Positions 4,371-37,249 of a stretch of DNA of 64,000 nt are shown one piece after another. Origin of the DNA: a virus. How positions within the stretch are numbered: position 1 is the first letter of the stretch; each line of letters starts with the position of its first letter. The stretch is from UHGV virus genome UHGV-1351569; one strand, given 5' to 3'. Under the pieces are notes generated by a model that saw nothing but the letters and a program-made list of their open reading frames with translations, made no database searches and was not told the DNA's origin. The translations under genes were made by a program, and so were the position numbers.

Positions 4371-7300
4371 TTATTCAACCCATTCAAATTTAACCGTTTT
4401 ATTCACTGGGTCAGGAATAATGCGAACATTACCAATTCGTAAGAAATCACGAATAGTAAGATTCCCCATTATAGCATTATCAGATGGTAAAGCACCGATA
4501 TCAGATGGCTGAGGAGGGTTACCTCCATCAAATACCTGAACAAAGCTTGACCAAGAATTTTTGGTTTTCTGCCATGTACGCGTCCAGCGAGTGGTGCGCG
4601 CTTCTGGGGTCGTTGGATAAGTAATCCAATCTTGGTAAAGCGAATCAAGTGTGTTACCAAACTGAGTCAATGTACCAGGAGATTTAACTTCTTCACCACG
4701 TTCTAAGTATGGAAGTCCAGTCACTTCATTAGTTTTTTCAACCATCTTAAAATAACCTGGGAACTGGTTATAAGTGGCTGAATCATTAATATCGATTGAC
4801 CAGAATCCTACAGTATCAGATGTTGGCACACGAGTATATAAATCAGAGGTTTTAGTACCCTGAGAACGAATTCTCGAGTTAACAGTTAAACCGCCTGAAT
4901 TTATAGTAGCACCTTTGGCAATAATTAAGCTTTCGCCAATCGTTACTTGGCCAGATGCATTATTAATAGCTAAAGGACGTAATCCATTAAATCCACCAGT
5001 CTGATCACCCGATGCAGTAAGCATAAAATTCGTTACTGATCCATCATTGCGAACAATGAAACCATAATTTCCGTTAATAGCACGGAAAGCATTTGCGCTT
5101 CGAGAAATAATTTCACCAGTTGCAGTGACTGAATTACCAAATGTTGCTACGCCATTTGCATTCAATGTTCCTGAAGCATTAACATTTATCGGTGTTACTG
5201 TACCGTTGATATTAAATGTTATATTTCCGGCTTTATTGCGCTGAGAATAAAAATGACTAGATGTTTCATCACTAACTTCAAATACGGTAGAACGTGTTGT
5301 ATCTAATTCCCCACTAAATTGATTTCCCCACACTCTAACAGTCATCGTTTGGGCTGGGTTTGTTCCAGTTTGAGGTCCTTTCTCAAAAATCAATCGAGTT
5401 GCTGTTCCAGTATTAGAAATAGTTAATGTACTATTTGCTGAAACTGATCCACCGAACGTAGCAGTACTAGATGATACAAGAGGGGCACTCAGATTCGTTT
5501 GTTGGGTTAAGGTTAGTGAACCATTAACTGTCTGCGCAATATCCCTACGAATGAACTGAGATGAATCTAGACCATCCAATAAATTTGTATCAGCAGCTTT
5601 TGCTTTTAACGGCAGATAATTTGCTAATACACGGTTTAATTCATATGGTGATACTGCATAGCTATTTTTCTCATATGATTCTAATGGCTGTGTTGAACCT
5701 ACCGTATCATTACCAACGAATGTAATTGAACCAGATGAAGTTTTAACAAAACCTCTTATCAGAGTAGTTGCTGCCCAAGTAGGTTCACTCTGCACAATCC
5801 ATTTTAAATTTTTTGGAGATACAGCAGTATTTGCTGACGTTCCAGCTACAGTTTCAACTTGAGTTGCAACTTTAATAACGCCTTCTTGTGCTTCAGTAGA
5901 TTTAGTACCTAAAAGCTTTTTAGGAGTTATTAGAACATTATCTAATGCTCCTGCAGCAGCTTCAACTTGTGTAGCTACACGAAGTGTACCACGCTGTGTC
6001 TCATTTGCTTCAAGAATATTAAGGGTATAATGGTCCCAGAGAGTTCCTGATTCAACTAATCCAGATAGAGCAACAACAGAAGTACGATCAGTACTATCAA
6101 ATCTAGTTTTAATTTTTAATGGTGTAGAGATACGAGTATCGTCGACGCCTGCGTCGAATTCAACTTGTGTAGCAATTTCAGCTATACCACTTAAACTTTC
6201 AGTTGCTATACGGTCATTTAAAGTTTTCGGAGTGACTGCACGAGTATAATCAGTTCCTGTATTAACTTCACTTTGCGTAGCAATTTCAATTAAACCAATT
6301 CTTGCATCAGTTGATGTCTTTTTATGTAACGTTTCTGGCGTTACAACCGCATTTGCCCATCCTTCTTGGCTTTGTCCAGCAATTACTTCACTTTCAACTG
6401 CTAAAATTACTGCACCTTGCTGTGTTGGAGTAGCTTTATACTGATCCAAAGCTTTAGGCGAAACAACTAAATTATTAGTGTTTTTATTATAAACATTTGT
6501 ACCATTTAATTCACGACTAGAAGCTGGAGTAGCTCCTGCGGTAGATACAAAGGTTACAATACCAGATAATGTTTCAGAACCTTGACGAGCTTGAAGCTTT
6601 TTAGGAGTGATGATTGCAGTATCATCAGTACCTGCGTTAGTTTCTTGCTGCGTAGCAATTTCAGCAACACCTCTGCGAGTTTCTGTGGCTGTTCTTTCAT
6701 TCAGCTTTTTAGGAGTGATGATAATATCGTCAGCAAAAGAGAATGTAGTATCCTGATTCACTTGAGCAGTGGTTGCTATTCTTGCGATACCTCTACGAGT
6801 TTCTGTAGCAGTACGGTTAGCTAATGTTTCTGGAGTAATTGCTAATTCTTTTTGTGGAGAATTTTCTAAATCGACGTTAGCTTGAGCTTGTGTAGCTAAA
6901 GCAATTACGCCTAATCTTGCTCTAGTAGAATCATTTAAAGAATCAACTCTTTCTACAGTTGGAACATTTTGTTGCACAACCCAGTATTTTCCATCAGAAT
7001 CTTCTATATAAGCAAGTTGTAAAACTGGAACATAATTAGTTTCACCATTAAAAACTAATTCTTGAACTGTTACCCATTCAGCCTCAGGTGGATATTCTGA
7101 ACGTTTTGGGAATTGCAACAATTGAACTGAAGAAGCAATTTTATCTTCACCGGCAGCTTTGATTTTAACTGTTTGGCCTTTTCTCATGTAATTCATGGAA
7201 ATTTTAACAGTATCACCAACAGAAATATTAGTTGGAAGCTGAAGTTCAATTGTTTGAGTTGTTCCGTTATTCGCACCAAATACCATAACTTCTTCATTTG

Positions 7301-29452: not shown

Positions 29453-29903
29453 GTTAGAGATAAGAAGCAATTTTAGATGGCCATCATGCGCATTAAGTAA
29501 TTTCGCCCAATGGCCTTTCGTTATGGATGGTATTCAATTTGGAGGTCTCGAAGGATTCCTCCAAGGATGCAAGGTGAAAAATGTTGAACAACAGCGTCGT
29601 ATATTTGGGTTATCCGGGCTTGCCGCCCAACAAGCTGGACGAGCTTATGCTAGAGCTCAGGACCGTGGGACCCTCTTCTGGCTTGGAGTTCCGTTTTCAA
29701 GATACTCTCCAGCGTGGAAAGAATTATACACAAATGCATATTTTGAAGCAGCGTTCCAAAACAAGGGCTTTCGCGATGCATTACAAGCCTCGAAAGGAAA
29801 AGTTTTGAAGCACAGCATGGCTAGTGGTCTAACAAAAGATGATACAATACTAACCGAAGCTGAATTTATTGATGTGTTAAACCTATTAAGAGACTCTCTA
29901 TGA
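29439..29903 (+). CDS. 30.3: NADAR (YbiA)-like domain protein
   Basis: 154 aa; LSNFAQWPFVMDGIQFGGLEGFLQGCK resembles the NADAR signature (FSNF..WP...DG.....E.F.Q..K). Confidence 0.7.
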   Translation: MKMSELEIRSNFRWPSCALSNFAQWPFVMDGIQFGGLEGFLQGCKVKNVEQQRRIFGLSGLAAQQAGRAYARAQDRGTLFWLGVPFSRYSPAWKELYTNAYFEAAFQNKGFRDALQASKGKVLKHSMASGLTKDDTILTEAEFIDVLNLLRDSL

Positions 29904-30751
29904 AGCCTACTATTTTAACTGATATTGATGGAGTATGTTTAAGCTGGCAATCAGGCCTTCCTTATTTTGCTCAGAAATATAATCTTCCGTTAGAACATAT
30001 TTTAAAAATGATCCAAGATGAGAAATTTATTTCTCCGGGTAAACTCTTTAATTGTGATGAAGAACTTGGCGTCAAGTTAATTGAAAAATACAATCGTTCA
30101 GATTTTATTCGTTATTTGTCTCCATATAAAGACGCCCTGTGCGTAATTAACAAATTAAAAGAAGATTATAATTTTGTAGCTGTTACAGCATTGGGTGATT
30201 CTATTGACGCTCTGCTGAATCGTCAATTTAATTTGAATGCTCTTTTTCCTGGTGCCTTCTCAGAAGTAATGATGTGTGGTCATGATTCTTCAAAAGAAGA
30301 GTTGTTCAAAAAGGCAAAAGAGAAATATAACGTGATTTGTTATATTGACGATCTCGCTCATCACTGCGACCACGCGAGTGAAATATTAAATGTTCCTGTT
30401 TATTGGATGGCTCGAGGAGAGCGTGACAATATTCCAAAAACCGCTCAGCGAGTTTATACATGGAATGATGTAGAAAATAAGCTTTTTTCACCAAAGGAAA
30501 ATAAAGAAAGTTTTGATAGTGAAAAAGCTATAAAAGATGTAATTGAGAAGATGGTTAAAAACGATTCTTTTCGTTGGAACACTACCTGGAGAACTCCTGG
30601 ATTTAATCCGTATAATCCATATTATACACATCCATATAATCCATATTATACACACCCGTACCATATGAATCCATTCCATACGTGGAGTTATACTAAGCCT
30701 GGTGATGCAGGGTATTTTAATAGTGATAATATTTTCCAAGGAGCATTCTAA
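29900..30751 (+). CDS. HAD-superfamily-like protein with C-terminal Pro/Tyr-rich repeat tail
   Basis: 283 aa; N-terminal ILTDIDGV (DxDG motif); C-terminal NPYNPYYTHPYNPYYTHPYHMNPF. Confidence 0.7.
   Translation: MKPTILTDIDGVCLSWQSGLPYFAQKYNLPLEHILKMIQDEKFISPGKLFNCDEELGVKLIEKYNRSDFIRYLSPYKDALCVINKLKEDYNFVAVTALGDSIDALLNRQFNLNALFPGAFSEVMMCGHDSSKEELFKKAKEKYNVICYIDDLAHHCDHASEILNVPVYWMARGERDNIPKTAQRVYTWNDVENKLFSPKENKESFDSEKAIKDVIEKMVKNDSFRWNTTWRTPGFNPYNPYYTHPYNPYYTHPYHMNPFHTWSYTKPGDAGYFNSDNIFQGAF
30611..30658 (+). repeat. 24-bp direct tandem repeat, 2 copies, inside a coding region
   Basis: TATAATCCATATTATACACATCCA then TATAATCCATATTATACACACCCG; encodes the duplicated YNPYYTHP peptide. Confidence 0.85.
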
Positions 30752-31020
30752 TGTTTGTCGTTCATACTATTTATGAAAATGAAGGTAATACTACACGTGA
30801 TTACGGTCACGTAAATCAATTTTTTAGATGCAATCCAGAATTCCGAGCTCAAAAAGACGAACGAATTTTTAAAAAATGTGTAGAGCAAGGTTTCATTTAC
30901 GTCAAGCACTGGATGCAAGGAAATAAAGTTAGAACTACATATCATAAGTCTTTGCCTGAGCTTAATGATGAATTGATTTATAATAGAGCTGTAAACCAAG
31001 CTTTGAAGGATGAGCAATGA
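30751..31020 (+). CDS. hypothetical protein
   Basis: 89 aa ORF directly upstream of DNA ligase. Confidence 0.65.
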   Translation: MFVVHTIYENEGNTTRDYGHVNQFFRCNPEFRAQKDERIFKKCVEQGFIYVKHWMQGNKVRTTYHKSLPELNDELIYNRAVNQALKDEQ

Positions 31021-32480
31021 TTCTTAAAATTCTGAATGAAATAGCATCTATTGGATCAACTAAGCAGAAGCAAGCAATTCTTGAAAAGAATAAAGATAAT
31101 GAATTGCTTAAACGGGTATATCGTCTGACTTATTCTCGTGGGTTACAGTATTATATCAAGAAATGGCCTAAACCTGGTATTGCTACCCAGAGTTTTGGAA
31201 TGCTGACTATTACCGATATGCTTGACTTCATTGAATTCACGTTAGCTACTCGGAAATTGACCGGAAATGCTGCAATTGAGGAATTGACTGGATATATCAC
31301 TGATGGTAAAAAGGATGATGTTGAAGTTTTGCGTCGAGTGATGATGCGAGACCTTGAATGTGGTGCTTCAGTATCTATTGCAAATAAAGTTTGGCCAGGT
31401 TTAATTCCTGAACAACCTCAAATGTTGGCAAGTTCTTATGATGAAAAAGGCATTAGTAAAAATATCAAGTTTCCAGCCTTTGCGCAGTTAAAAGCAGATG
31501 GAGCTCGGTGTTTTGCTGAAGTTAGAGGTGATGAATTAGATGATGTTCGTCTTTTATCACGAGCTGGTAATGAATATCTAGGATTAGATCTTCTTAAGGA
31601 AGAATTAATCAAAATGACTGCTGAAGCCCGCCAGATTCATCCAGAAGGTGTGTTAATTGATGGCGAATTGGTATACCATGAGCAAGTTAAAAAGGAACCA
31701 GAAGGCCTAGATTTTCTTTTTGATGCTTATCCTGAAATTAGTAAAGCTAAAGAATTCGCCGAAGTAGCGGAATCTCGTACTACTTCTAATGGAATCGCCA
31801 ATAAATCCTTAAAAGGAACCATTTCTGAAAAAGAAGCTCAATGCATGAAGTTTCAGGTCTGGGATTATGTCCCGTTGGTAGAAATATACGGTCTTCCGGC
31901 GTTTCGTTTAAAATATGATGTGCGTTTTTCTAAACTAGAACAAATGACATCAGGATATGATAAAGTAATTTTAATTGAAAACCAGGTAGTAAATAACCTA
32001 GATGAAGCTAAGGTAATTTATAAAAAGTATATTGACCAAGGTCTTGAAGGTATTATTCTCAAAAATACCGATGGATTATGGGAAAATGCTCGTTCAAAAA
32101 ATCTTTATAAATTTAAAGAAGTAATTGATGTTGATTTAAAAATTGTAGGAATTTATCCTCACCGTAAAGACCCTACTAAAGCAGGTGGATTTATTCTTGA
32201 ATCAGAGTGTGGAAAAATTAAAGTAAATGCTGGTTCAGGCTTAAAAGATAAAGCCGGTGTAAAATCACATGAACTTGACCGTACTCGCATTATGGAAAAC
32301 CAAAATTATTATATTGGAAAAATTCTAGAGTGCGAATGCAATGGTTGGTTAAAATCTGATGGCCGCACTGATTACGTTAAATTATTTCTTCCGATTGCGA
32401 TTCGTTTACGTGAAGATAAAACTAAAGCTAATACATTCGAGGATGTATTTGGTGATTTTCATGAGGTAACTGGTCTATGA
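31017..32480 (+). CDS. 30: ATP-dependent DNA ligase
   Basis: 487 aa MILKILNEIASIGSTKQKQAILEKNK...; adenylation motif KADGAR (FAQLKADGARCFAEV). Confidence 0.97.
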   Translation: MILKILNEIASIGSTKQKQAILEKNKDNELLKRVYRLTYSRGLQYYIKKWPKPGIATQSFGMLTITDMLDFIEFTLATRKLTGNAAIEELTGYITDGKKDDVEVLRRVMMRDLECGASVSIANKVWPGLIPEQPQMLASSYDEKGISKNIKFPAFAQLKADGARCFAEVRGDELDDVRLLSRAGNEYLGLDLLKEELIKMTAEARQIHPEGVLIDGELVYHEQVKKEPEGLDFLFDAYPEISKAKEFAEVAESRTTSNGIANKSLKGTISEKEAQCMKFQVWDYVPLVEIYGLPAFRLKYDVRFSKLEQMTSGYDKVILIENQVVNNLDEAKVIYKKYIDQGLEGIILKNTDGLWENARSKNLYKFKEVIDVDLKIVGIYPHRKDPTKAGGFILESECGKIKVNAGSGLKDKAGVKSHELDRTRIMENQNYYIGKILECECNGWLKSDGRTDYVKLFLPIAIRLREDKTKANTFEDVFGDFHEVTGL

Positions 32481-32665
32481 AAGCTTACTTAGAAACAATT
32501 GTCGTGGCTCAAAAAGAAGGTGGAGATGTTTCTACTTCTGTATCACAAATTATGATTGAATTTATAGATGCATATGCTTATAATAAATTCACAGAAACAT
32601 TTGATGCCTATGAAAAAGGTCCAAAGTTTGAAATATATCGTACTCTCTTACCAATAGATTATTAA
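32477..32665 (+). CDS. hypothetical protein
   Basis: 62 aa ORF overlapping ligase stop. Confidence 0.55.
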   Translation: MKAYLETIVVAQKEGGDVSTSVSQIMIEFIDAYAYNKFTETFDAYEKGPKFEIYRTLLPIDY

Positions 32666-32690
32666 AGGCCTTCGGGCCTTTAATTTTATA
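32664..32690 (+). terminator. rho-independent terminator
   Basis: AAAGGCC-ttcg-GGCCTTT followed by an A/T-rich tract. Confidence 0.7.
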
Positions 32691-32717
32691 AATAGAATAA
32701 ACACTAGAGAGGATATG

Positions 32718-34811
32718 ATGGAACTCATTACAGAATTATTTGACGAAGATACTACTCTTCCGATTACAAACTTAAATCCAAAGAAGAAAATACCACAAAT
32801 TTTTTCAGTTCATGTTGATGACGCAATTGAACAACCAGGCTTTCGTTTATGTACCTATACATCTGGAGGTGATACTAATCGCGATTTAAAAATGGGCGAT
32901 AAAATGATGCATATTGTTCCTTTTACATTAACTGCTAAAGGTTCAATTGCTAAATTAAAAGGTCTCGGTCCAAGCCCAATTAATTACATCAATTCAGTTT
33001 TTACTGTTGCGATGCAAACAATGCGTCAGTATAAAATTGATGCTTGTATGCTTCGTATTCTTAAGTCTAAAACCGCTGGTCAAGCTCGACAAATTCAAGT
33101 TATTGCTGATAGACTTATCCGTAGTCGTTCAGGTGGCAGATACGTCCTTCTTAAAGAACTCTGGGATTACGATAAAAAGTATGCATATATTCTTATACAT
33201 CGCAAAAATGTATCACTAGAAGACATTCCAGGAGTTCCGGAAATTAGTACCGAGCTCTTTACTAAAGTTGAATCGAAAGTCGGCGATGTTTATATCAATA
33301 AAGATACTGGAGCTCAAGTAACTAAAAATGAGGCAATTGCAGCATCTATTGCACAAGAAAATGATAAACGTTCTGACCAAGCTGTTATTGTTAAAGTTAA
33401 AATTTCCCGTAGAGCAATTGCGCAAAGTCAATCATTAGAATCTTCTAGATTTGAAAGCGAATTATTCCAGAAGTATGAATCTACTGCAGCTAATTTCAAT
33501 AAACCTGCTACAGCTCCTTTAATTCCCGAAGCAGAAGAAATGAAGCTTGGAATTAATTCATTAGCTTCTAAAACTAAGGCAGCAAAAATTATTGCCGAAG
33601 GAACCGCAGATGAACTTCACTATGACTATAAATTCTTTTCAAAAAGTGAGGTTAATGAAGTTTCTGAAAAAATTAAAGATGTAATTCTTAATGCGATTAA
33701 AAATGAACCAACTACTTCAATAAAATGTTTAGAGAAATACGCAGCAGCTGTTAATCAATTATTTGAAGAATATAAAGATAATTGGCTTGATAAACATAAT
33801 AAAACCCGTAAAGGACAGCCAGATGAAGTCTGGGAAGAAATGACTAAAAATTCCTGGAACGCAGCAAAAACTAAATTCCTCAAAAGAATGATTTACAGCT
33901 TTTCTGGAATTGGTGCAGGTCCAATGATTGATATTACTATTGCTCGTGATGGTTCTAAATATACTCCATCACAAAAGCGCGGCATTAGAGAGTATTGTGG
34001 TTCAGGATATACTGACATCAATAATCTTCTTTTGGGTCGTTACAATCCAGAACGATATGATGTAATGAGTGAAAAAGAAATTGAATCTGCTATAAATAAC
34101 TTAGATTCAGCTTTTGAAAATGGTGACCGTATACCAGAAGGCATTACAGTTTATCGTGCTCAAAGTATGACTGCTCCTATATACGAAGCACTAGTTAAAA
34201 ATAAAGTGTTCTATTTCAGAAATTTTGTATCTACTTCTTTAACTCCTATCATTTTTGGACGTTTTGGAATTACACATGCTGGTATTGGTCTTTTAGAACC
34301 AGAAGCTCGTAATGAATTAACAGTTGATAAAAATGAAGAAGGAATAACTATTAATCCAAACGAAATAAGAGCGTATAAAGAAAATCCTGAATACGTTAAA
34401 GTTCAAATAGGATGGGCAATTGATGGAGCTCATAAAGTTAATGTTGTATATCCAGGAAGTCTCGGAATAGCAACAGAAGCTGAAGTTATTCTACCACGCG
34501 GATTGATGGTCAAAGTTAATAAAATAACTGATGCTTCTAATAATGATGGAACAACATCTAATAATACAAAACTCATTCAAGCTGAAGTTATGACTACGGA
34601 AGAACTCACCGAATCAGTAATTTATGACGGTGACCGTCTAATGGAAACTGGTGAAGTAGTTGCAATGACAGGTGATATTGAAATAGAAGACAGAGTTGAC
34701 TTTGCATCATTTGTTTCATCAAATGTTAAACAAAAAGTAGAATCATCTCTTGGAATTATTGCATCTTGCATAGATATTACAAACATGCCTTACAAGTTCG
34801 TTCAAGGATAA
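32718..34811 (+). CDS. alt: Alt-like ADP-ribosyltransferase (capsid-packaged)
   Basis: ATG 32718 gives 697 aa MELITELFDEDTTLPITNL...; C-terminal motifs ...VYRAQ, FVSTSLTP, TEAEVILPRG (R / S-T-S / E-x-E). Confidence 0.9.
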   Translation: MELITELFDEDTTLPITNLNPKKKIPQIFSVHVDDAIEQPGFRLCTYTSGGDTNRDLKMGDKMMHIVPFTLTAKGSIAKLKGLGPSPINYINSVFTVAMQTMRQYKIDACMLRILKSKTAGQARQIQVIADRLIRSRSGGRYVLLKELWDYDKKYAYILIHRKNVSLEDIPGVPEISTELFTKVESKVGDVYINKDTGAQVTKNEAIAASIAQENDKRSDQAVIVKVKISRRAIAQSQSLESSRFESELFQKYESTAANFNKPATAPLIPEAEEMKLGINSLASKTKAAKIIAEGTADELHYDYKFFSKSEVNEVSEKIKDVILNAIKNEPTTSIKCLEKYAAAVNQLFEEYKDNWLDKHNKTRKGQPDEVWEEMTKNSWNAAKTKFLKRMIYSFSGIGAGPMIDITIARDGSKYTPSQKRGIREYCGSGYTDINNLLLGRYNPERYDVMSEKEIESAINNLDSAFENGDRIPEGITVYRAQSMTAPIYEALVKNKVFYFRNFVSTSLTPIIFGRFGITHAGIGLLEPEARNELTVDKNEEGITINPNEIRAYKENPEYVKVQIGWAIDGAHKVNVVYPGSLGIATEAEVILPRGLMVKVNKITDASNNDGTTSNNTKLIQAEVMTTEELTESVIYDGDRLMETGEVVAMTGDIEIEDRVDFASFVSSNVKQKVESSLGIIASCIDITNMPYKFVQG

Positions 34812-34814
34812 ATC

Positions 34815-36872
34815 ATGGAACTTATTACAGAATTATTTGACGGCGCTTCGGCGCCGGTTGTTAACTTAAATCCTAAGCATAAAATACCTCAAATTTTTGC
34901 TATTCAAGCCGGCGAAGAAAGTGTGCTTCCTGGATTTAGATTTTGTACATACACCTCTGGCGGTGATACAAATAAAAACGTTAAGCCAGGCGATAAAATG
35001 ATGCATATCGTAATGATAGGTGTCAATGAGAAACTGTCATTAGTTAAACTTAAAAACTTGGGTGGAAATCCAATTGGTGTCATTAATGCGGTTTTTGATA
35101 CTGCTCTTCAAACAATGAAACAGTATAAAATTGACGCATGCCTATTACGCGTACTAAAAAGTAAAACAAATGGCGCAGCTCGTCAAATGCAAGTTATTGC
35201 TGATCGTTTAGTACGTACTAAAGGAGCAGGTCGATATGTTCTTTTAAAGGAAATCTGGGATTACGATAAAAAGTATGCATATATTATGGTTTACCGTAAA
35301 AATGCCAATTTAGAAGACATTCCAGGTGTACCTCCTATTTCAACTGAGTTATTCACAAAAGTTGAATCAAAGGTTGGTGATGTTTATGTAGATGTTAAAA
35401 CAGGTAATGCTGTTCCTAAAGCTGTTGCTGTTGCTGCTTCTATTGCTTTAGAAAATGATAAGCGCACGGATCAAGCTGTTATTCAGAAAACTAAAATTAG
35501 TCGTCGATTAGCAGCACAAGCTCAATATTCTACTGTCGATGCTTCACTTCAGGGCGATAGCTTCGCTGCCAAGAAATATCAAGAGTTTGAATCTAAAGTT
35601 CCGGTATATAAAGCAGAAGGACCAATGAACTCTGGTGTTATTCAGATTGGTTCAAACTTCGGCAAAGGAGCTATCGGTGGTATGAGAAGTGCTTCTCGTT
35701 TTAAATCTAACGATTATGAACTAGAAAGCTTCCGAAATCATATTGCATTGGCCCATGCACGTTTACGTGATCCATCTATCAAGCTGCAGAGCGATATAAC
35801 ATATCAAGGTTCTCAAGAATATTTAAAGAATAAAGAATTCTTTGATTATAAAACCGATAAAATTTTAAGCGATCTCGCTGACATTAATATTTCTAATAGC
35901 TTTGATGTTATTAAGAAAATTATCAATGATTTAGTTAAAGGTTCTAAAGCCACGCCAGACGAAAAAGTAGCTATTATTCAATTTGTCATGAATAGCATTT
36001 ATAAATTGATTAATGAATCTGCTGCTCAGGCATATGAATACGCAAGCACCGAAGTAACTCCAAAAGGACTGACTCAGGCTGAGTCTGATGTAATTGAAGA
36101 TTATTGTGCAGATTCATATGTTGAAATGAACTCGTTCCTCCTGGGTAAACCAGATTCTACCCGTGAAGAATACATGGAACGAGCTATTAAACACATTGAG
36201 ACAATGGATTCTGCCTTTGCCAAAGGTTCAGTTCTTCCTCCAGGAACTACGCTTTATCGTGGACAAGAAGTTACCTTTAAAACTTTACGCCATAATATTG
36301 AAAATAAAATGTTCTATTTCAAGAACTTCGTATCAACATCGCTTAAACCAAATATCTTCGGTGAGCATGGTAAAAACTATATGGCTCTAGATGATTCCGG
36401 TGCAGTATTTTCTGGTGAAGGAGAAGGTTCTGTTGATGCTGAAGATTTAATGCATATGGGTAGTCATTCTGCATATGCTAATGAAGATGCTGAAACTAGC
36501 GTGGGTATGGTAATAAAAGGAGCTGAGCGAATTAAAGTTATCGTTCCAGGTCATTTATCAGAATTTCCATCAGAAGCTGAAGTTATTCTACCACGTGGAA
36601 TTTTGTTGAAGATTAATAAAGTAAGCACGTACATGATGAAAGAAACTGCTTATAACAAGTATTTAATCGAAGGCACAATCGTTCCTCCTTCTGAACAATT
36701 AGAAGAATCGGTATATGATGGCGATCATCTGATGGAAACTGGTGAAGTTCGTCCAATGGCTGGATTTAATCAATTCCTTGTAGAAGAATCAAAAGAAGAG
36801 GAAAACGAAGTTTCTCAAATCTTGGCTTCTTTGGTTAACATCAACGGAATGTCTAAAAAGTTCAAAATGTAG
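34815..36872 (+). CDS. second Alt-like ADP-ribosyltransferase paralog, intact
   Basis: 685 aa MELITELFDGASAPVVNL...; N-terminal ~230 aa and C-terminal motifs (TLYRGQ, FVSTSLKP, SEAEVILPRG) shared with upstream alt; central region divergent. Confidence 0.85.
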   Translation: MELITELFDGASAPVVNLNPKHKIPQIFAIQAGEESVLPGFRFCTYTSGGDTNKNVKPGDKMMHIVMIGVNEKLSLVKLKNLGGNPIGVINAVFDTALQTMKQYKIDACLLRVLKSKTNGAARQMQVIADRLVRTKGAGRYVLLKEIWDYDKKYAYIMVYRKNANLEDIPGVPPISTELFTKVESKVGDVYVDVKTGNAVPKAVAVAASIALENDKRTDQAVIQKTKISRRLAAQAQYSTVDASLQGDSFAAKKYQEFESKVPVYKAEGPMNSGVIQIGSNFGKGAIGGMRSASRFKSNDYELESFRNHIALAHARLRDPSIKLQSDITYQGSQEYLKNKEFFDYKTDKILSDLADINISNSFDVIKKIINDLVKGSKATPDEKVAIIQFVMNSIYKLINESAAQAYEYASTEVTPKGLTQAESDVIEDYCADSYVEMNSFLLGKPDSTREEYMERAIKHIETMDSAFAKGSVLPPGTTLYRGQEVTFKTLRHNIENKMFYFKNFVSTSLKPNIFGEHGKNYMALDDSGAVFSGEGEGSVDAEDLMHMGSHSAYANEDAETSVGMVIKGAERIKVIVPGHLSEFPSEAEVILPRGILLKINKVSTYMMKETAYNKYLIEGTIVPPSEQLEESVYDGDHLMETGEVRPMAGFNQFLVEESKEEENEVSQILASLVNINGMSKKFKM

Positions 36873-36901
36873 TTTACAAGTTCCTCGTGTTGTGTTATAA
36901 T
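36872..36901 (+). promoter_or_regulatory. T4-type early promoter; near-duplicate of the alc upstream cassette
   Basis: GTTTAC 36872-77 (overlapping the alt paralog stop), TATAAT 36896-901; about 85% identical over ~55 bp to 21186-21240. Confidence 0.5.
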
Positions 36902-36932: not shown

Positions 36933-37223
36933 ATGAAATCTTCTTTACGCTTTTTAGGTCAAGAACTTGTAGTTGAAGGCGTTATTCCTGCTGATAATGC
37001 TTTTAATGAAGCAGTTTATGATGAATTTATCAAAATTTTTGGAACAGATAAAAAGTTCGGAATTTTTCCTTCTGAAAATTTTTCAAAGCCAGAACAGACT
37101 GAAAGTATTTTCCAAGGTGTAGTAACAGGTAAATTTGAGTCAGAAGCTCCGGTAAAAATTGAAGTTTATATTGAAGACAGTTTAGTTGCTTCAGTTGCTG
37201 CTTTTATTTCATTCCGTAAATAA
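36933..37223 (+). CDS. hypothetical small protein with N-terminal capsid-targeting-like sequence
   Basis: 96 aa MKSSLRFLGQELVVEG...; SD GAGGAA; adjacent to head-packaged alt genes. Confidence 0.7.
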   Translation: MKSSLRFLGQELVVEGVIPADNAFNEAVYDEFIKIFGTDKKFGIFPSENFSKPEQTESIFQGVVTGKFESEAPVKIEVYIEDSLVASVAAFISFRK

Positions 37224-37227
37224 AAAT

Positions 37228-37249
37228 ATGGGGACCGAAAGGTCCCCAT
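37228..37249. terminator. bidirectional hairpin terminator between convergent genes
   Basis: ATGGGGACC-gaaa-GGTCCCCAT; T-rich on the minus-strand side and moderately so on the plus side. Confidence 0.75.

Follow-up and report, generated by a model that had tools for sequence, protein, structure and literature searches.

Our analyses indicate that the pair of alt genes at positions 32,718 to 36,872 of UHGV virus genome UHGV-1351569 (the 64,000-nucleotide stretch analysed, here called the window) is probably an ordinary two-gene alt array of Tequatrovirus phages, whose products would be packaged and injected enzymes with different host targets. Such a tandem is already known and is a matter of routine annotation. 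Sequence comparison identifies its second gene as the intact form of a gene that is left in T4 as alt.-1/alt.-2.

Organization and prevalence of the locus

Two adjacent full-length open reading frames (ORFs) lie on the + strand, 3 nt apart (genes 1 and 2), and both translations begin MELITELFD, as a preliminary description of the DNA had stated. The pair sits between DNA ligase/alt.1 and alt.-3/gene 54, on the gene 30 strand, in an order identical to that of phage JS10 and within the same locus as T4 Alt (gpAlt, NP_049811: gene 30, alt.1, alt ... alt.-3, gene 54). An in-frame ATG 3 nt upstream of gene 1, at 32715, would give a product of 698 aa, and the second ATG gives the 697-aa form (MELITE...). 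The features of the locus are as follows.

32477..32665, + strand: alt.1 homologue, 62 aa (PF24647 Phage_blade, E 7.5e-29; position as T4 alt.1)
32661..32684, + strand: terminator-like hairpin, UUCG loop then U-rich stretch (fold energy -13.5 kcal/mol)
32687..32694, + strand: T4-type late promoter box TATAAATA (pattern match; 23 nt 5' of the first ATG)
32718..34811, + strand: gene 1, alt, assigned to the T6-type allele, 697 aa (PF03496 E 1.6e-37; phrog_802 E 8.6e-273)
32718..32735, + strand: gene 1 propeptide MELITE (predicted gp21 prohead-protease cleavage after Glu6)
32718..33431, + strand: gene 1 N-terminal alpha/beta domain, aa 1-238 (68% identity with gene 2)
33432..33953, + strand: gene 1 central all-helical region, aa 239-412, T6 class (predicted helices, pLDDT about 71-91)
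33954..34607, + strand: gene 1 ADP-ribosyltransferase (ART) domain, aa 413-630 (R480, S505-T-S507, E587-A-E589)
34815..36872, + strand: gene 2, second full-length Alt paralogue, 685 aa (PF03496 E 2.9e-20; phrog_802 E 1.1e-254)
34815..34832, + strand: gene 2 predicted propeptide MELITE (identical in gene 1 and T4 Alt)
34815..35528, + strand: gene 2 N-terminal alpha/beta domain, aa 1-238 (alignment and predicted model)
35529..36059, + strand: gene 2 central all-helical region, aa 239-415 (predicted model, pLDDT about 85-93)
36060..36704, + strand: gene 2 ADP-ribosyltransferase domain, aa 416-630 (R482, S507-T-S509, E587-A-E589)
36873..36901, + strand: early-type sigma-70 promoter match, TTTACA, 17 nt, TATAAT, with TG (11/12 consensus positions)
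36933..37223, + strand: alt.-3 homologue, 96 aa, DUF5498 (PF17602 E 1.4e-64; T4 synteny)
37228..37249, unstranded: bidirectional terminator-like hairpin between alt.-3 and convergent gene 54

The intact second copy had been presented as something unusual, a view that our survey does not support: most Tequatrovirus phages have it, and hundreds of records already annotate it, many of them as "Alt-like RNA polymerase ADP-ribosyltransferase (x2)". The locus is covered to 80% or more by no fewer than 354 phage records, and the gene 2 body occurs at 95% aa identity or more in 402 records (402 of the 544 locus-matching records of related phages). Tandem Alt-like pairs in the same order are annotated in ime09, Shfl2, PP01 and JS10; the pair is found in these relatives and not in T4 itself, and the present one shows no substantive difference from the annotated T-even pairs, being one more instance. 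Elsewhere in the Straboviridae, arrays of 2-3 Alt copies occur in three other genera. A tandem Alt-like pair has also been reported in 44RR (PMC1524935), and a 2026 paper on 6phi13/SHFML-11 gave the paralogues as 43.29% identical and proposed different targets for them (PMC13600099).

Misassembly can make tandem repeats, and the two genes do have short identical runs, as would be expected had the tandem been duplicated recently in one lineage, or been created in this window alone by faulty assembly. The arrangement nevertheless recurs at 94-98% nucleotide identity in at least 354 independent records, and Dhakavirus JS10 has it in diverged form. Where their DNA can be aligned, the two copies are no more than about 71-73% identical, and the T4 remnant bears its own decay mutations. 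Recent duplication or misassembly was rejected on the basis of these records, the JS10 tandem and the catalytic-domain tree described below, and we consider its probability negligible.

Family membership and predicted fold

Full-length profile matches place both proteins among the Alt-like phage ADP-ribosyltransferases (PHROG 802), the phrog_802 profile covering residues 1-696 of gene 1 and 1-685 of gene 2. Against a gathering score of 23.4 bits, Pfam PF03496 scored 129.2 bits with gene 1 and 72.9 bits with gene 2; family members carry precomputed matches to PF03496 and to PF26846, the latter on the N-terminal domain. The catalytic set R, S-T-S, E-x-E that had been read in both ORFs is present at the residues listed above, with none of the Arg, Ser and Glu missing from the second ORF, and its columns do not vary across a family alignment of 20 sequences. 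The Arg and E-x-E of gene 1 align with their CdtA equivalents, and the C-terminal domains are predicted to have a C3/VIP2-type ART fold, in models of moderate confidence (mean pLDDT 72-75) built from the 20-sequence alignment. The E-x-E motif and the fold matches suggest arginine specificity for both enzymes. In T4 Alt, the substitution E577A, at a Glu of the E-x-E motif, abolishes activity (PMC11404850); this position would map to E574/E576 in RefSeq numbering.

The R-S-E toxins C3, VIP2, iota and Vis have PF03496 and the catalytic triad in common with the phage proteins and are their best structural matches. Unlike the C3/VIP2 toxins, phage Alt proteins carry about 410 extra N-terminal residues (the head-associated domain and the helical region), and they are delivered by phage ejection rather than by secretion or a binary-toxin partner. 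T4 ModA and ModB differ from Alt in being short (about 200 aa), early-expressed enzymes without its N-terminal and central regions. They fall in the same R-S-E phage ART clade as Alt and are not injected (PMC5512222).

Divergence of the two paralogues

Genes 1 and 2 align by BLASTP as full-length paralogues, with 41% identity over 718 columns (E 4e-157), and a four-part build is likely in both proteins: a propeptide, an N-domain (about 230 aa), a helical middle (about 175 aa) and the ART domain. The N-terminal domain is at most a tentative candidate for the GNAT-fold acetyltransferases, when similarity of fold, support from sequence or profile and an acetyl-CoA-binding motif are required together. 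The N-terminal 238 aa, previously described as near-identical over some 230 aa, proved to be 68% identical (162/237; about 71-73% in DNA). They are followed by an unalignable middle of about 175 aa (ORF1 239-412, ORF2 239-415; 12-16% identity), which is of equal length and all-helical in the predicted models of both proteins. That the centres are unrelated agrees with the lack of similarity detectable by hhalign, although the length of about 250 aa attributed to them was too great: the centre of gene 2 matched the gene 1/T4 class at a probability of 0.4% and the P0013-P0015 class, a class nearest to the position-2 gene of Dhakavirus JS10, at 97.4%. The catalytic domains (413-630) are only 34% identical and the C-terminal tails 42%, so that the proposal of a swapped middle domain is right in that the middles differ, but not in making this the sole difference.

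Alignment assigns gene 1 to the T6-type allele of alt: across the entire gene, MM start included, it is 96.6% identical in nucleotides to T6 alt (X69894; Koch and Rueger 1994, cited in PMC11404850). The T6 record spans the first gene alone and is silent on a second copy. T4 Alt and gene 1 have in common the propeptide, the N-domain, the R-S-ExE domain and the C-terminal tail, and gene 1 differs by its T6-type allele of the middle and catalytic parts (identity 99.6% for aa 1-238 and 94% for the tail, against 32% for the centre and 66% for the catalytic domain). Identity of T4 Alt with gene 2 is 68% in the N-domain, 18% in the centre and 35% in the catalytic domain. Phage records number 170 with the T4-type alt body and 317 with the T6-type.

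Relative to other Tequatrovirus copies, gene 2 has a dN/dS of 0.03-0.05 (0.025-0.058 in the catalytic segment), values of about 0.04 that point to strong purifying selection, and it is an old paralogue, present at the same position in Dhakavirus. These data bear on whether gene 2 might be a redundant second dose, packaged, injected and directed at what Alt itself modifies (Arg265 of RNA polymerase alpha and the other Alt substrates), and kept for dosage or robustness. Such a role would suit the propeptide, N-domain, catalytic motifs and C-terminal block common to both genes, as well as the sequenced isolates with one copy or one chimera. It is, however, unlikely in view of the divergence of the catalytic and central regions, the maintenance of each type at 95-99% identity with a dN/dS of about 0.04 across hundreds of phages, and the distinctness of the types since before the Tequatrovirus/Dhakavirus split, since redundancy should homogenise or decay.

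The remnant in T4

The T4 region was correctly given in the preliminary description as one full-length alt plus the short ORFs alt.-1 and alt.-2 (T4 annotation), and its suggestion that these might be remnants of the second paralogue was confirmed. Both (NP_049810, NP_049809) match gene 2 aa 1-117 almost perfectly, and their PHROGs (23015, 15247) match gene 2 at 2e-40 and 2e-38, as against 1e-21 and 2e-19 for gene 1. T4 has no working second copy because 1,699 bp were lost between two 9-nt CTAAAAAGT repeats, whose positions in the window correspond to the mapped junction.

35154..35162, + strand: left CTAAAAAGT repeat, left end of the 1,699-bp deletion (T4 and SG1 comparison)
36853..36861, + strand: right CTAAAAAGT repeat, right end of the 1,699-bp deletion (T4 and SG1 comparison)

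The identical junction is found in Salmonella phage SG1, and the T4 remnant also has a 1-nt deletion, the frameshift that splits it into alt.-1 and alt.-2. Whereas the T4 annotation traces these ORFs to an ancient duplication of the initial part of alt, our comparison makes them the 5' remnant of a full-length paralogue.

Recombination and domain histories

The identical DNA run quoted for both genes occurs exactly twice and was produced by no shuffle. Crossovers of natural chimeric genes fall in an interval that contains this run and in a block near the C-terminus.

33162..33191, + strand: 30-nt identical run, gene 1 copy (within the ECML-134 chimera crossover interval)
35256..35285, + strand: 30-nt identical run, gene 2 copy (exact match to the gene 1 copy)
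34623..34672, + strand: shared C-terminal block (YDGDxLMETGEV), gene 1 copy (NIC06P2 chimera crossover site)
36714..36763, + strand: shared C-terminal block, gene 2 copy (alignment)

The single alt of ECML-134 is a chimera of an ORF1 head and an ORF2 body, with its crossover between nt 442 and 475, an interval that contains the 30-nt run, and the crossover of the NIC06P2 chimera lies within the shared C-terminal block; the shared blocks are thus prone to recombination, as had been anticipated. T4-type and T6-type bodies are flanked by sequence that is 99-100% identical. The gene 2 body is absent from T4, SG1 and NIC06P2 and the gene 1 body from ECML-134, and since all of these are sequenced isolates missing one body, neither copy is essential.

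Trees of the two conserved domains differ in their grouping, the N-domains clustering by phage genus (bootstrap 100, 100 and 98) and the catalytic domains by gene position (bootstrap 100 and 100), from which separate domain histories follow. Likewise, the position-1 protein of JS10 is 94% identical to gene 1 in the catalytic domain and only 46% in the N-domain. The shared N- and C-terminal blocks probably act as recombination points that homogenise the N-domain within a phage lineage and let effector modules be swapped or lost; independent duplications or co-adaptation to lineage-specific head proteins, and not gene conversion, could also account for the genus-wise grouping.

Expression, packaging and host targets

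What we infer for gene 2 is that it is co-transcribed late, that its product is packaged, injected and specific for arginine, and that its targets are distinct. Late transcription of both genes would start at the TATAAATA promoter that precedes gene 1, a late promoter being annotated at the equivalent site in the alt records X15811 (T4) and X69894 (T6). Co-transcription is suggested by the fact that gene 2 has no late box of its own and begins 3 nt past the gene 1 stop codon; its translation from the gene 1 transcript would use its own Shine-Dalgarno sequence (AAGGA, 34804-34808). In both genes, MELITE is predicted to be a propeptide of the kind in T4 Alt, removed by the prohead protease: the T4 record X15811 has the mature peptide beginning after 6 aa (residue 7), and the motif [LI]-x-E then [LV]F[DE] is present in most of 16 Alt copies across genera, RB49 having IE-SFE. 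Each head contains about 40 copies of Alt, a core protein that gp21 trims (PMC9958956), and T4 Alt is in the virion and is injected with the DNA (PMC9958956, PMC5512222). Both proteins may similarly enter the prohead core through their shared N-terminal part, undergo gp21 trimming and be injected with the DNA, to move ADP-ribose from NAD+ to arginines of host proteins.

A mainly structural or core protein, or a late, non-injected intracellular enzyme whose ART goes unused on the next host, is a still less probable role for the gene 2 product. The literature treats Alt both as an enzyme and as a core protein (PMC11404850, PMC9958956), and our literature search found no virion data on the gene 2 product, both of which would accord with that role. 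The catalytic residues are nevertheless invariant, the catalytic segment is under the constraint noted above, and gene 2 has the N-terminal processing motif of the injected T4 Alt; moreover, head assembly proceeds without Alt (PMC9958956), so a purely structural role leaves the conservation of the active site unexplained.

Two injected enzymes would most likely modify different sets of host proteins, because their middle and catalytic parts are so diverged. The literature search found no study of gene 2-type activity or targets; the target is possibly a defence or stress protein instead of RNA polymerase.

Implications

We tentatively propose that the gene 2 Alt is injected as an effector in its own right, directed at host targets of its own, and that the alt locus is a polymorphic-toxin-like cassette system. 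The likeness to polymorphic toxins, an analogy and not a membership, lies in the architecture of a conserved delivery domain and an exchangeable toxin domain: the N-terminal part of Alt tracks the phage lineage, and the middle and catalytic parts have their own phylogeny and are swapped at conserved junctions. Unlike polymorphic toxins, the locus has no immunity gene, no Rhs/PAAR and no secretion-system context. If the proposal is true, the alt locus combines a lineage-homogenised head-delivery domain with effector modules traded between phage genera and, since the T4 laboratory strain deleted gene 2, work based on T4 would have overlooked half of the ADP-ribosyltransferases that typical T-even phages inject.

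At this locus T4 is the exception: a second, well-conserved Alt-type enzyme is kept in about three quarters of the related records that match the locus. Were gene 2 injected and directed at different targets, it would offer a ready experimental entry point to the takeover or disarming of the host by T-even phages in the opening seconds of infection. The recombination points that we mapped provide a concrete case of effector-module shuffling on the conserved delivery domain of a virion-delivered enzyme.

Flanking elements

The alt.1 homologue is the upstream neighbour of the pair and comes after DNA ligase gene 30. The hairpin that directly precedes the alt late promoter has a z of -3.44, none of 200 shuffles being equally stable. 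Downstream, the neighbour of gene 2 is the alt.-3 homologue, and the sigma-70 promoter match lies immediately 3' of gene 2 and 5' of alt.-3.

Organization of the alt locus

The window derives from a T4-like phage of the genus Tequatrovirus, and downstream of DNA ligase gene 30 it carries two adjacent alt genes in a tandem that is the standard annotated alt array of T-even phages, to which T4 is the exception. The region comprises the following features:

31017-32480, + strand, DNA ligase gene 30
32477-32665, + strand, alt.1 homologue, 62 aa (Pfam PF24647 'Phage blade protein', E 7.5e-29)
32718-34811, + strand, gene 1 (alt, T6-type allele), 697 aa, with an additional in-frame ATG at 32715
34815-36872, + strand, gene 2 (second Alt paralogue), 685 aa
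36933-37223, + strand, alt.-3 homologue, 96 aa, DUF5498
minus strand, convergent with the alt region, genes 54, 48 and 29 (baseplate/tail)

A 9-bp GC-rich hairpin, terminator-like on both strands, separates alt.-3 from the convergent gene 54 at 37228-37249. In T4, mutants with a C-terminal extension of alt.-3 evade the CmdTAC defence system (PMC11618068). Further upstream, a 283-aa ORF (29900-30751) that precedes 30.1 and corresponds in position to T4 30.2 has a tandemly duplicated stretch of 24 nt (repeat 30606-30654), which encodes the repeated motif NPYNPYYTHPY close to the C-terminus.

Two full-length paralogues with intact catalytic sites

The products of genes 1 and 2 (ORF1 and ORF2) are indeed full-length paralogues, as the preliminary description had proposed (41% identity, E 4e-157). 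Both start with MELITELFD, both score well over threshold against the ADP-ribosyltransferase (ART) family PF03496 in Pfam and match PHROG 802 ('Alt-like RNA polymerase ADP-ribosyltransferase') over their whole length, and neither is matched by any NCBIfam family. The 30-nt identical run initially singled out occurs exactly twice. The N-terminal ~230 aa, described as near-identical, are nonetheless only similar (68% over aa 1-238), and the divergent centre, put at about 250 aa, shrinks to a stretch of ~175 aa without detectable similarity.

Identity between ORF1 and ORF2 by segment (ORF1 numbering)
aa 1-238: 68%
aa 239-412: 12-16%
aa 413-630, catalytic: 34%
C-terminal tail: 42%

The catalytic set is in place in ORF1 (R480, S505-T-S507, E587-A-E589) and equally in ORF2, the copy from which it might have been missing (R482, S507-T-S509, E587-A-E589), and the R, S-T-S and E-x-E columns are invariant in a 20-sequence family alignment. 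A Glu of the motif is required in T4 Alt, where E577A is inactive (PMC11404850); we infer that this residue is the motif Glu at RefSeq E574/E576. The Arg and E-x-E segments of gene 1 can be aligned to their counterparts in the binary toxin CdtA, and in a PDB sequence search gene 1 matched CdtA and iota toxins only weakly (E about 5e-4), while gene 2 had no match and neither query retrieved a solved Alt structure. An N-domain profile searched against PDB sequences and Pfam returned nothing relevant, so that a GNAT-like fold is only hinted at for this domain.

Compared with the copies of phages a48 and G3F9 (dS 0.16-0.17), gene 2 displays dN/dS of 0.03-0.05 in every segment and is thus under strong purifying selection throughout; on this pattern of substitutions it is best regarded as a functioning gene and not as a duplicate in decay.

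The divergent central region

The centres had been described as unrelated, and no sequence similarity between them is detectable: in profile-profile comparisons, which rest on small alignments, the gene 1 and gene 2 classes of centre were paired with a probability of 0.4%, and the gene 2 class matched with 97.4% a further class of Alt central regions (P0013-P0015), nearest to the position-2 gene (the second Alt gene of the tandem) of Dhakavirus JS10. Replacement by an unrelated module is not thereby established, because the length of the centre is nearly constant (170-192 aa in all family members examined) and both AlphaFold models are confidently all-helical in this region; ancient divergence of a single helical module is an equally possible explanation. 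Both centres match the same positions of phrog_802, which we did not count as homology, since a profile made from both types would match either. The gene 2 model aligned by Foldseek along the full length of other Alt proteins in BFVD with TM scores of only 0.3-0.45, owing to differing domain orientations, and this alignment does not settle whether the two centres share a fold.

As a sole query, the gene 2 centre found no match at E up to 0.001 among 1.84 billion representatives (HMMER) and a single 112-aa fragment in a word-indexed search. These near-empty results probably reflect the representation of Alt clusters by other allele types, and are uninformative, neither for nor against, as to the occurrence of the region in other architectures.

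Separate domain histories and recombination

The N-terminal and catalytic domains have followed different histories. N-domains are 55-80% identical between paralogues of one genome versus 32-62% between genera, whereas catalytic domains of Tequatrovirus and Dhakavirus resemble each other by gene position, gene 1 being 94% identical to JS10 position 1 and gene 2 56% identical to JS10 position 2 in this domain. Neighbour-joining trees (200 bootstraps) reproduced both patterns: in the N-domain tree all Tequatrovirus sequences formed one clade (100%), the Riv-10 pair grouped together (100%) and so did the PspYZU05 trio (98%), while in the catalytic tree position-1 genes grouped across the two genera, as did position-2 genes (100% each). 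The simplest reading would be that N-domains are homogenised between neighbours by gene conversion and effector modules exchanged between genera. The JS10 position-1 Alt (5032-7116 of its locus, L009), whose N-domain is only 46% identical to that of gene 1 despite the 94% identity of the catalytic domain, suggests a recent exchange of this kind between Dhakavirus and Tequatrovirus. Independent duplications, or co-adaptation of N-domains to lineage-specific head proteins, are possible alternative sources of the same domain histories.

The proposed proneness of the shared blocks to recombination is borne out by natural hybrids. The only alt gene of phage ECML-134, 686 aa long, is gene 1-like over its first 442 nt and gene 2-like from nt 475 onward, with the 30-nt identical run inside the crossover interval, and the single gene of Tequatrovirus NIC06P2 joins a gene 1 body to a gene 2 tail within the shared YDGDxLMETGEV block. 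At position 1, T4-type and T6-type alleles are 99-100% identical in their N-domains and 94-97% in their tails, versus 32% in the centres and 66% in the catalytic domains; these conserved flanks around divergent parts indicate cassette replacement.

Remnants of gene 2 in T4 and SG1

T4 has, as stated in the preliminary description, one alt plus short ORFs, in the transcription order 30, alt.1, alt (682 aa), alt.-1 (61 aa), alt.-2 (67 aa) and alt.-3. The suspicion that alt.-1 and alt.-2 are remnants of the second paralogue is upheld: they are near-identical with residues 1-117 of gene 2 rather than with T4 alt, and their PHROG families match gene 2 far better than gene 1. T4 DNA tracks the window to 35162 and picks up again at 36853, and the 9-nt repeat CTAAAAAGT is found at both ends (35154-35162 and 36853-36861), which therefore places the 1,699-bp deletion at microhomology; an upstream 1-nt deletion splits the remnant in two. 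Whereas the T4 annotation takes them for a copy of the initial portion of alt, our comparison identifies a truncated full-length paralogue.

Salmonella phage SG1 shares the deletion junction of T4 in gene 2 (locus L003, 2712-3134), but it carries a T6-type alt and its remnant is inactivated by another change, codon 6 having become a stop (GAA to TAA). Either a deletion allele spread by recombination or the deletion recurred at the 9-nt repeats.

Expression and delivery

A stable hairpin with a UUCG loop (32661-32684; -13.5 kcal/mol, z -3.4) just 3' of alt.1 is directly followed by a TATAAATA box (32687-32694), located where T4 and T6 records annotate a late promoter. The stop codon of the alt.1 homologue lies inside this hairpin. 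Gene 2 would probably be read from the same late transcript as gene 1, because it starts 3 nt past the gene 1 stop, has its own AAGGA Shine-Dalgarno 6 nt upstream and has no late box of its own. A second TATAAATA within gene 1 (34091-34098) was weighed as a promoter for late transcription of gene 2 from inside gene 1 and set aside, as one box per 2 kb is unremarkable with 18 in the window versus ~9 expected by chance. A strong early-type promoter match (36873-36901) follows gene 2, ahead of alt.-3.

In T4, Alt belongs to the prohead core, with ~40 copies, and loses its N-terminal peptide through cleavage by gp21 (PMC9958956); the T4 alt record annotates the mature N-terminus after six residues. 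The MELITE hexapeptide is identical in genes 1 and 2, and the [LI]-x-E / [LV]F[DE] motif is kept in most of 16 Alt copies compared from five genera; from this match to processed T4 Alt we infer that the gene 2 product would be packaged, trimmed and injected in the same way.

Distribution and previous annotation

Megablast with the 4.9-kb locus retrieved 544 phage records, 354 of which cover at least 80% of it; in many records the two genes are labelled 'Alt-like RNA polymerase ADP-ribosyltransferase' or alt_1/alt_2. Tblastn at ≥95% identity found the gene 2 body in 402 records, that of gene 1 (T6 type) in 317 and that of the T4 type in 170. In DNA, gene 1 is 96.6% identical to T6 alt (record X69894). 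Dhakavirus JS10 has the same tandem pair, and Dhakavirus ABTNLS3, Biquartavirus Riv-10 and Jiangsuvirus PspYZU05 carry arrays with two or three copies.

The tandem pair is consequently already known at the annotation level, and the preliminary description was real in its observation and largely sound in its biological reasoning. T4 alt.-1 and alt.-2 have been listed as paralogous duplications of alt, and a full-length alt duplicate was noted in Aeromonas phage 44RR (Nolan et al. 2006, PMC1524935); a 2026 genome paper reported a Tequatrovirus with two paralogous Alt-like proteins (43.29% identity) and suggested an expanded target range (PMC13600099). A literature search for functional study of the second copy yielded genome-description remarks only.

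RB49 differs in having one Alt copy plus an ART-only ORF, RB49p183 (locus L011, 5023-5847), which has no N-terminal domain and is annotated 'similar to C-terminal part of T4 Alt', and the records of Acinetobacter phages ZZ1 and Henu6 list a 'split RNA polymerase ADP-ribosylase'. Such copies without the N-domain may not be packaged. Lastly, a stretch of 52 residues with 100% identity to residues 589-640 of gene 2 is encoded at the extreme end of the Staphylococcus phage SAJK-IND record (MG010123.1, 32015-32170), probably as contamination or a chimeric assembly.
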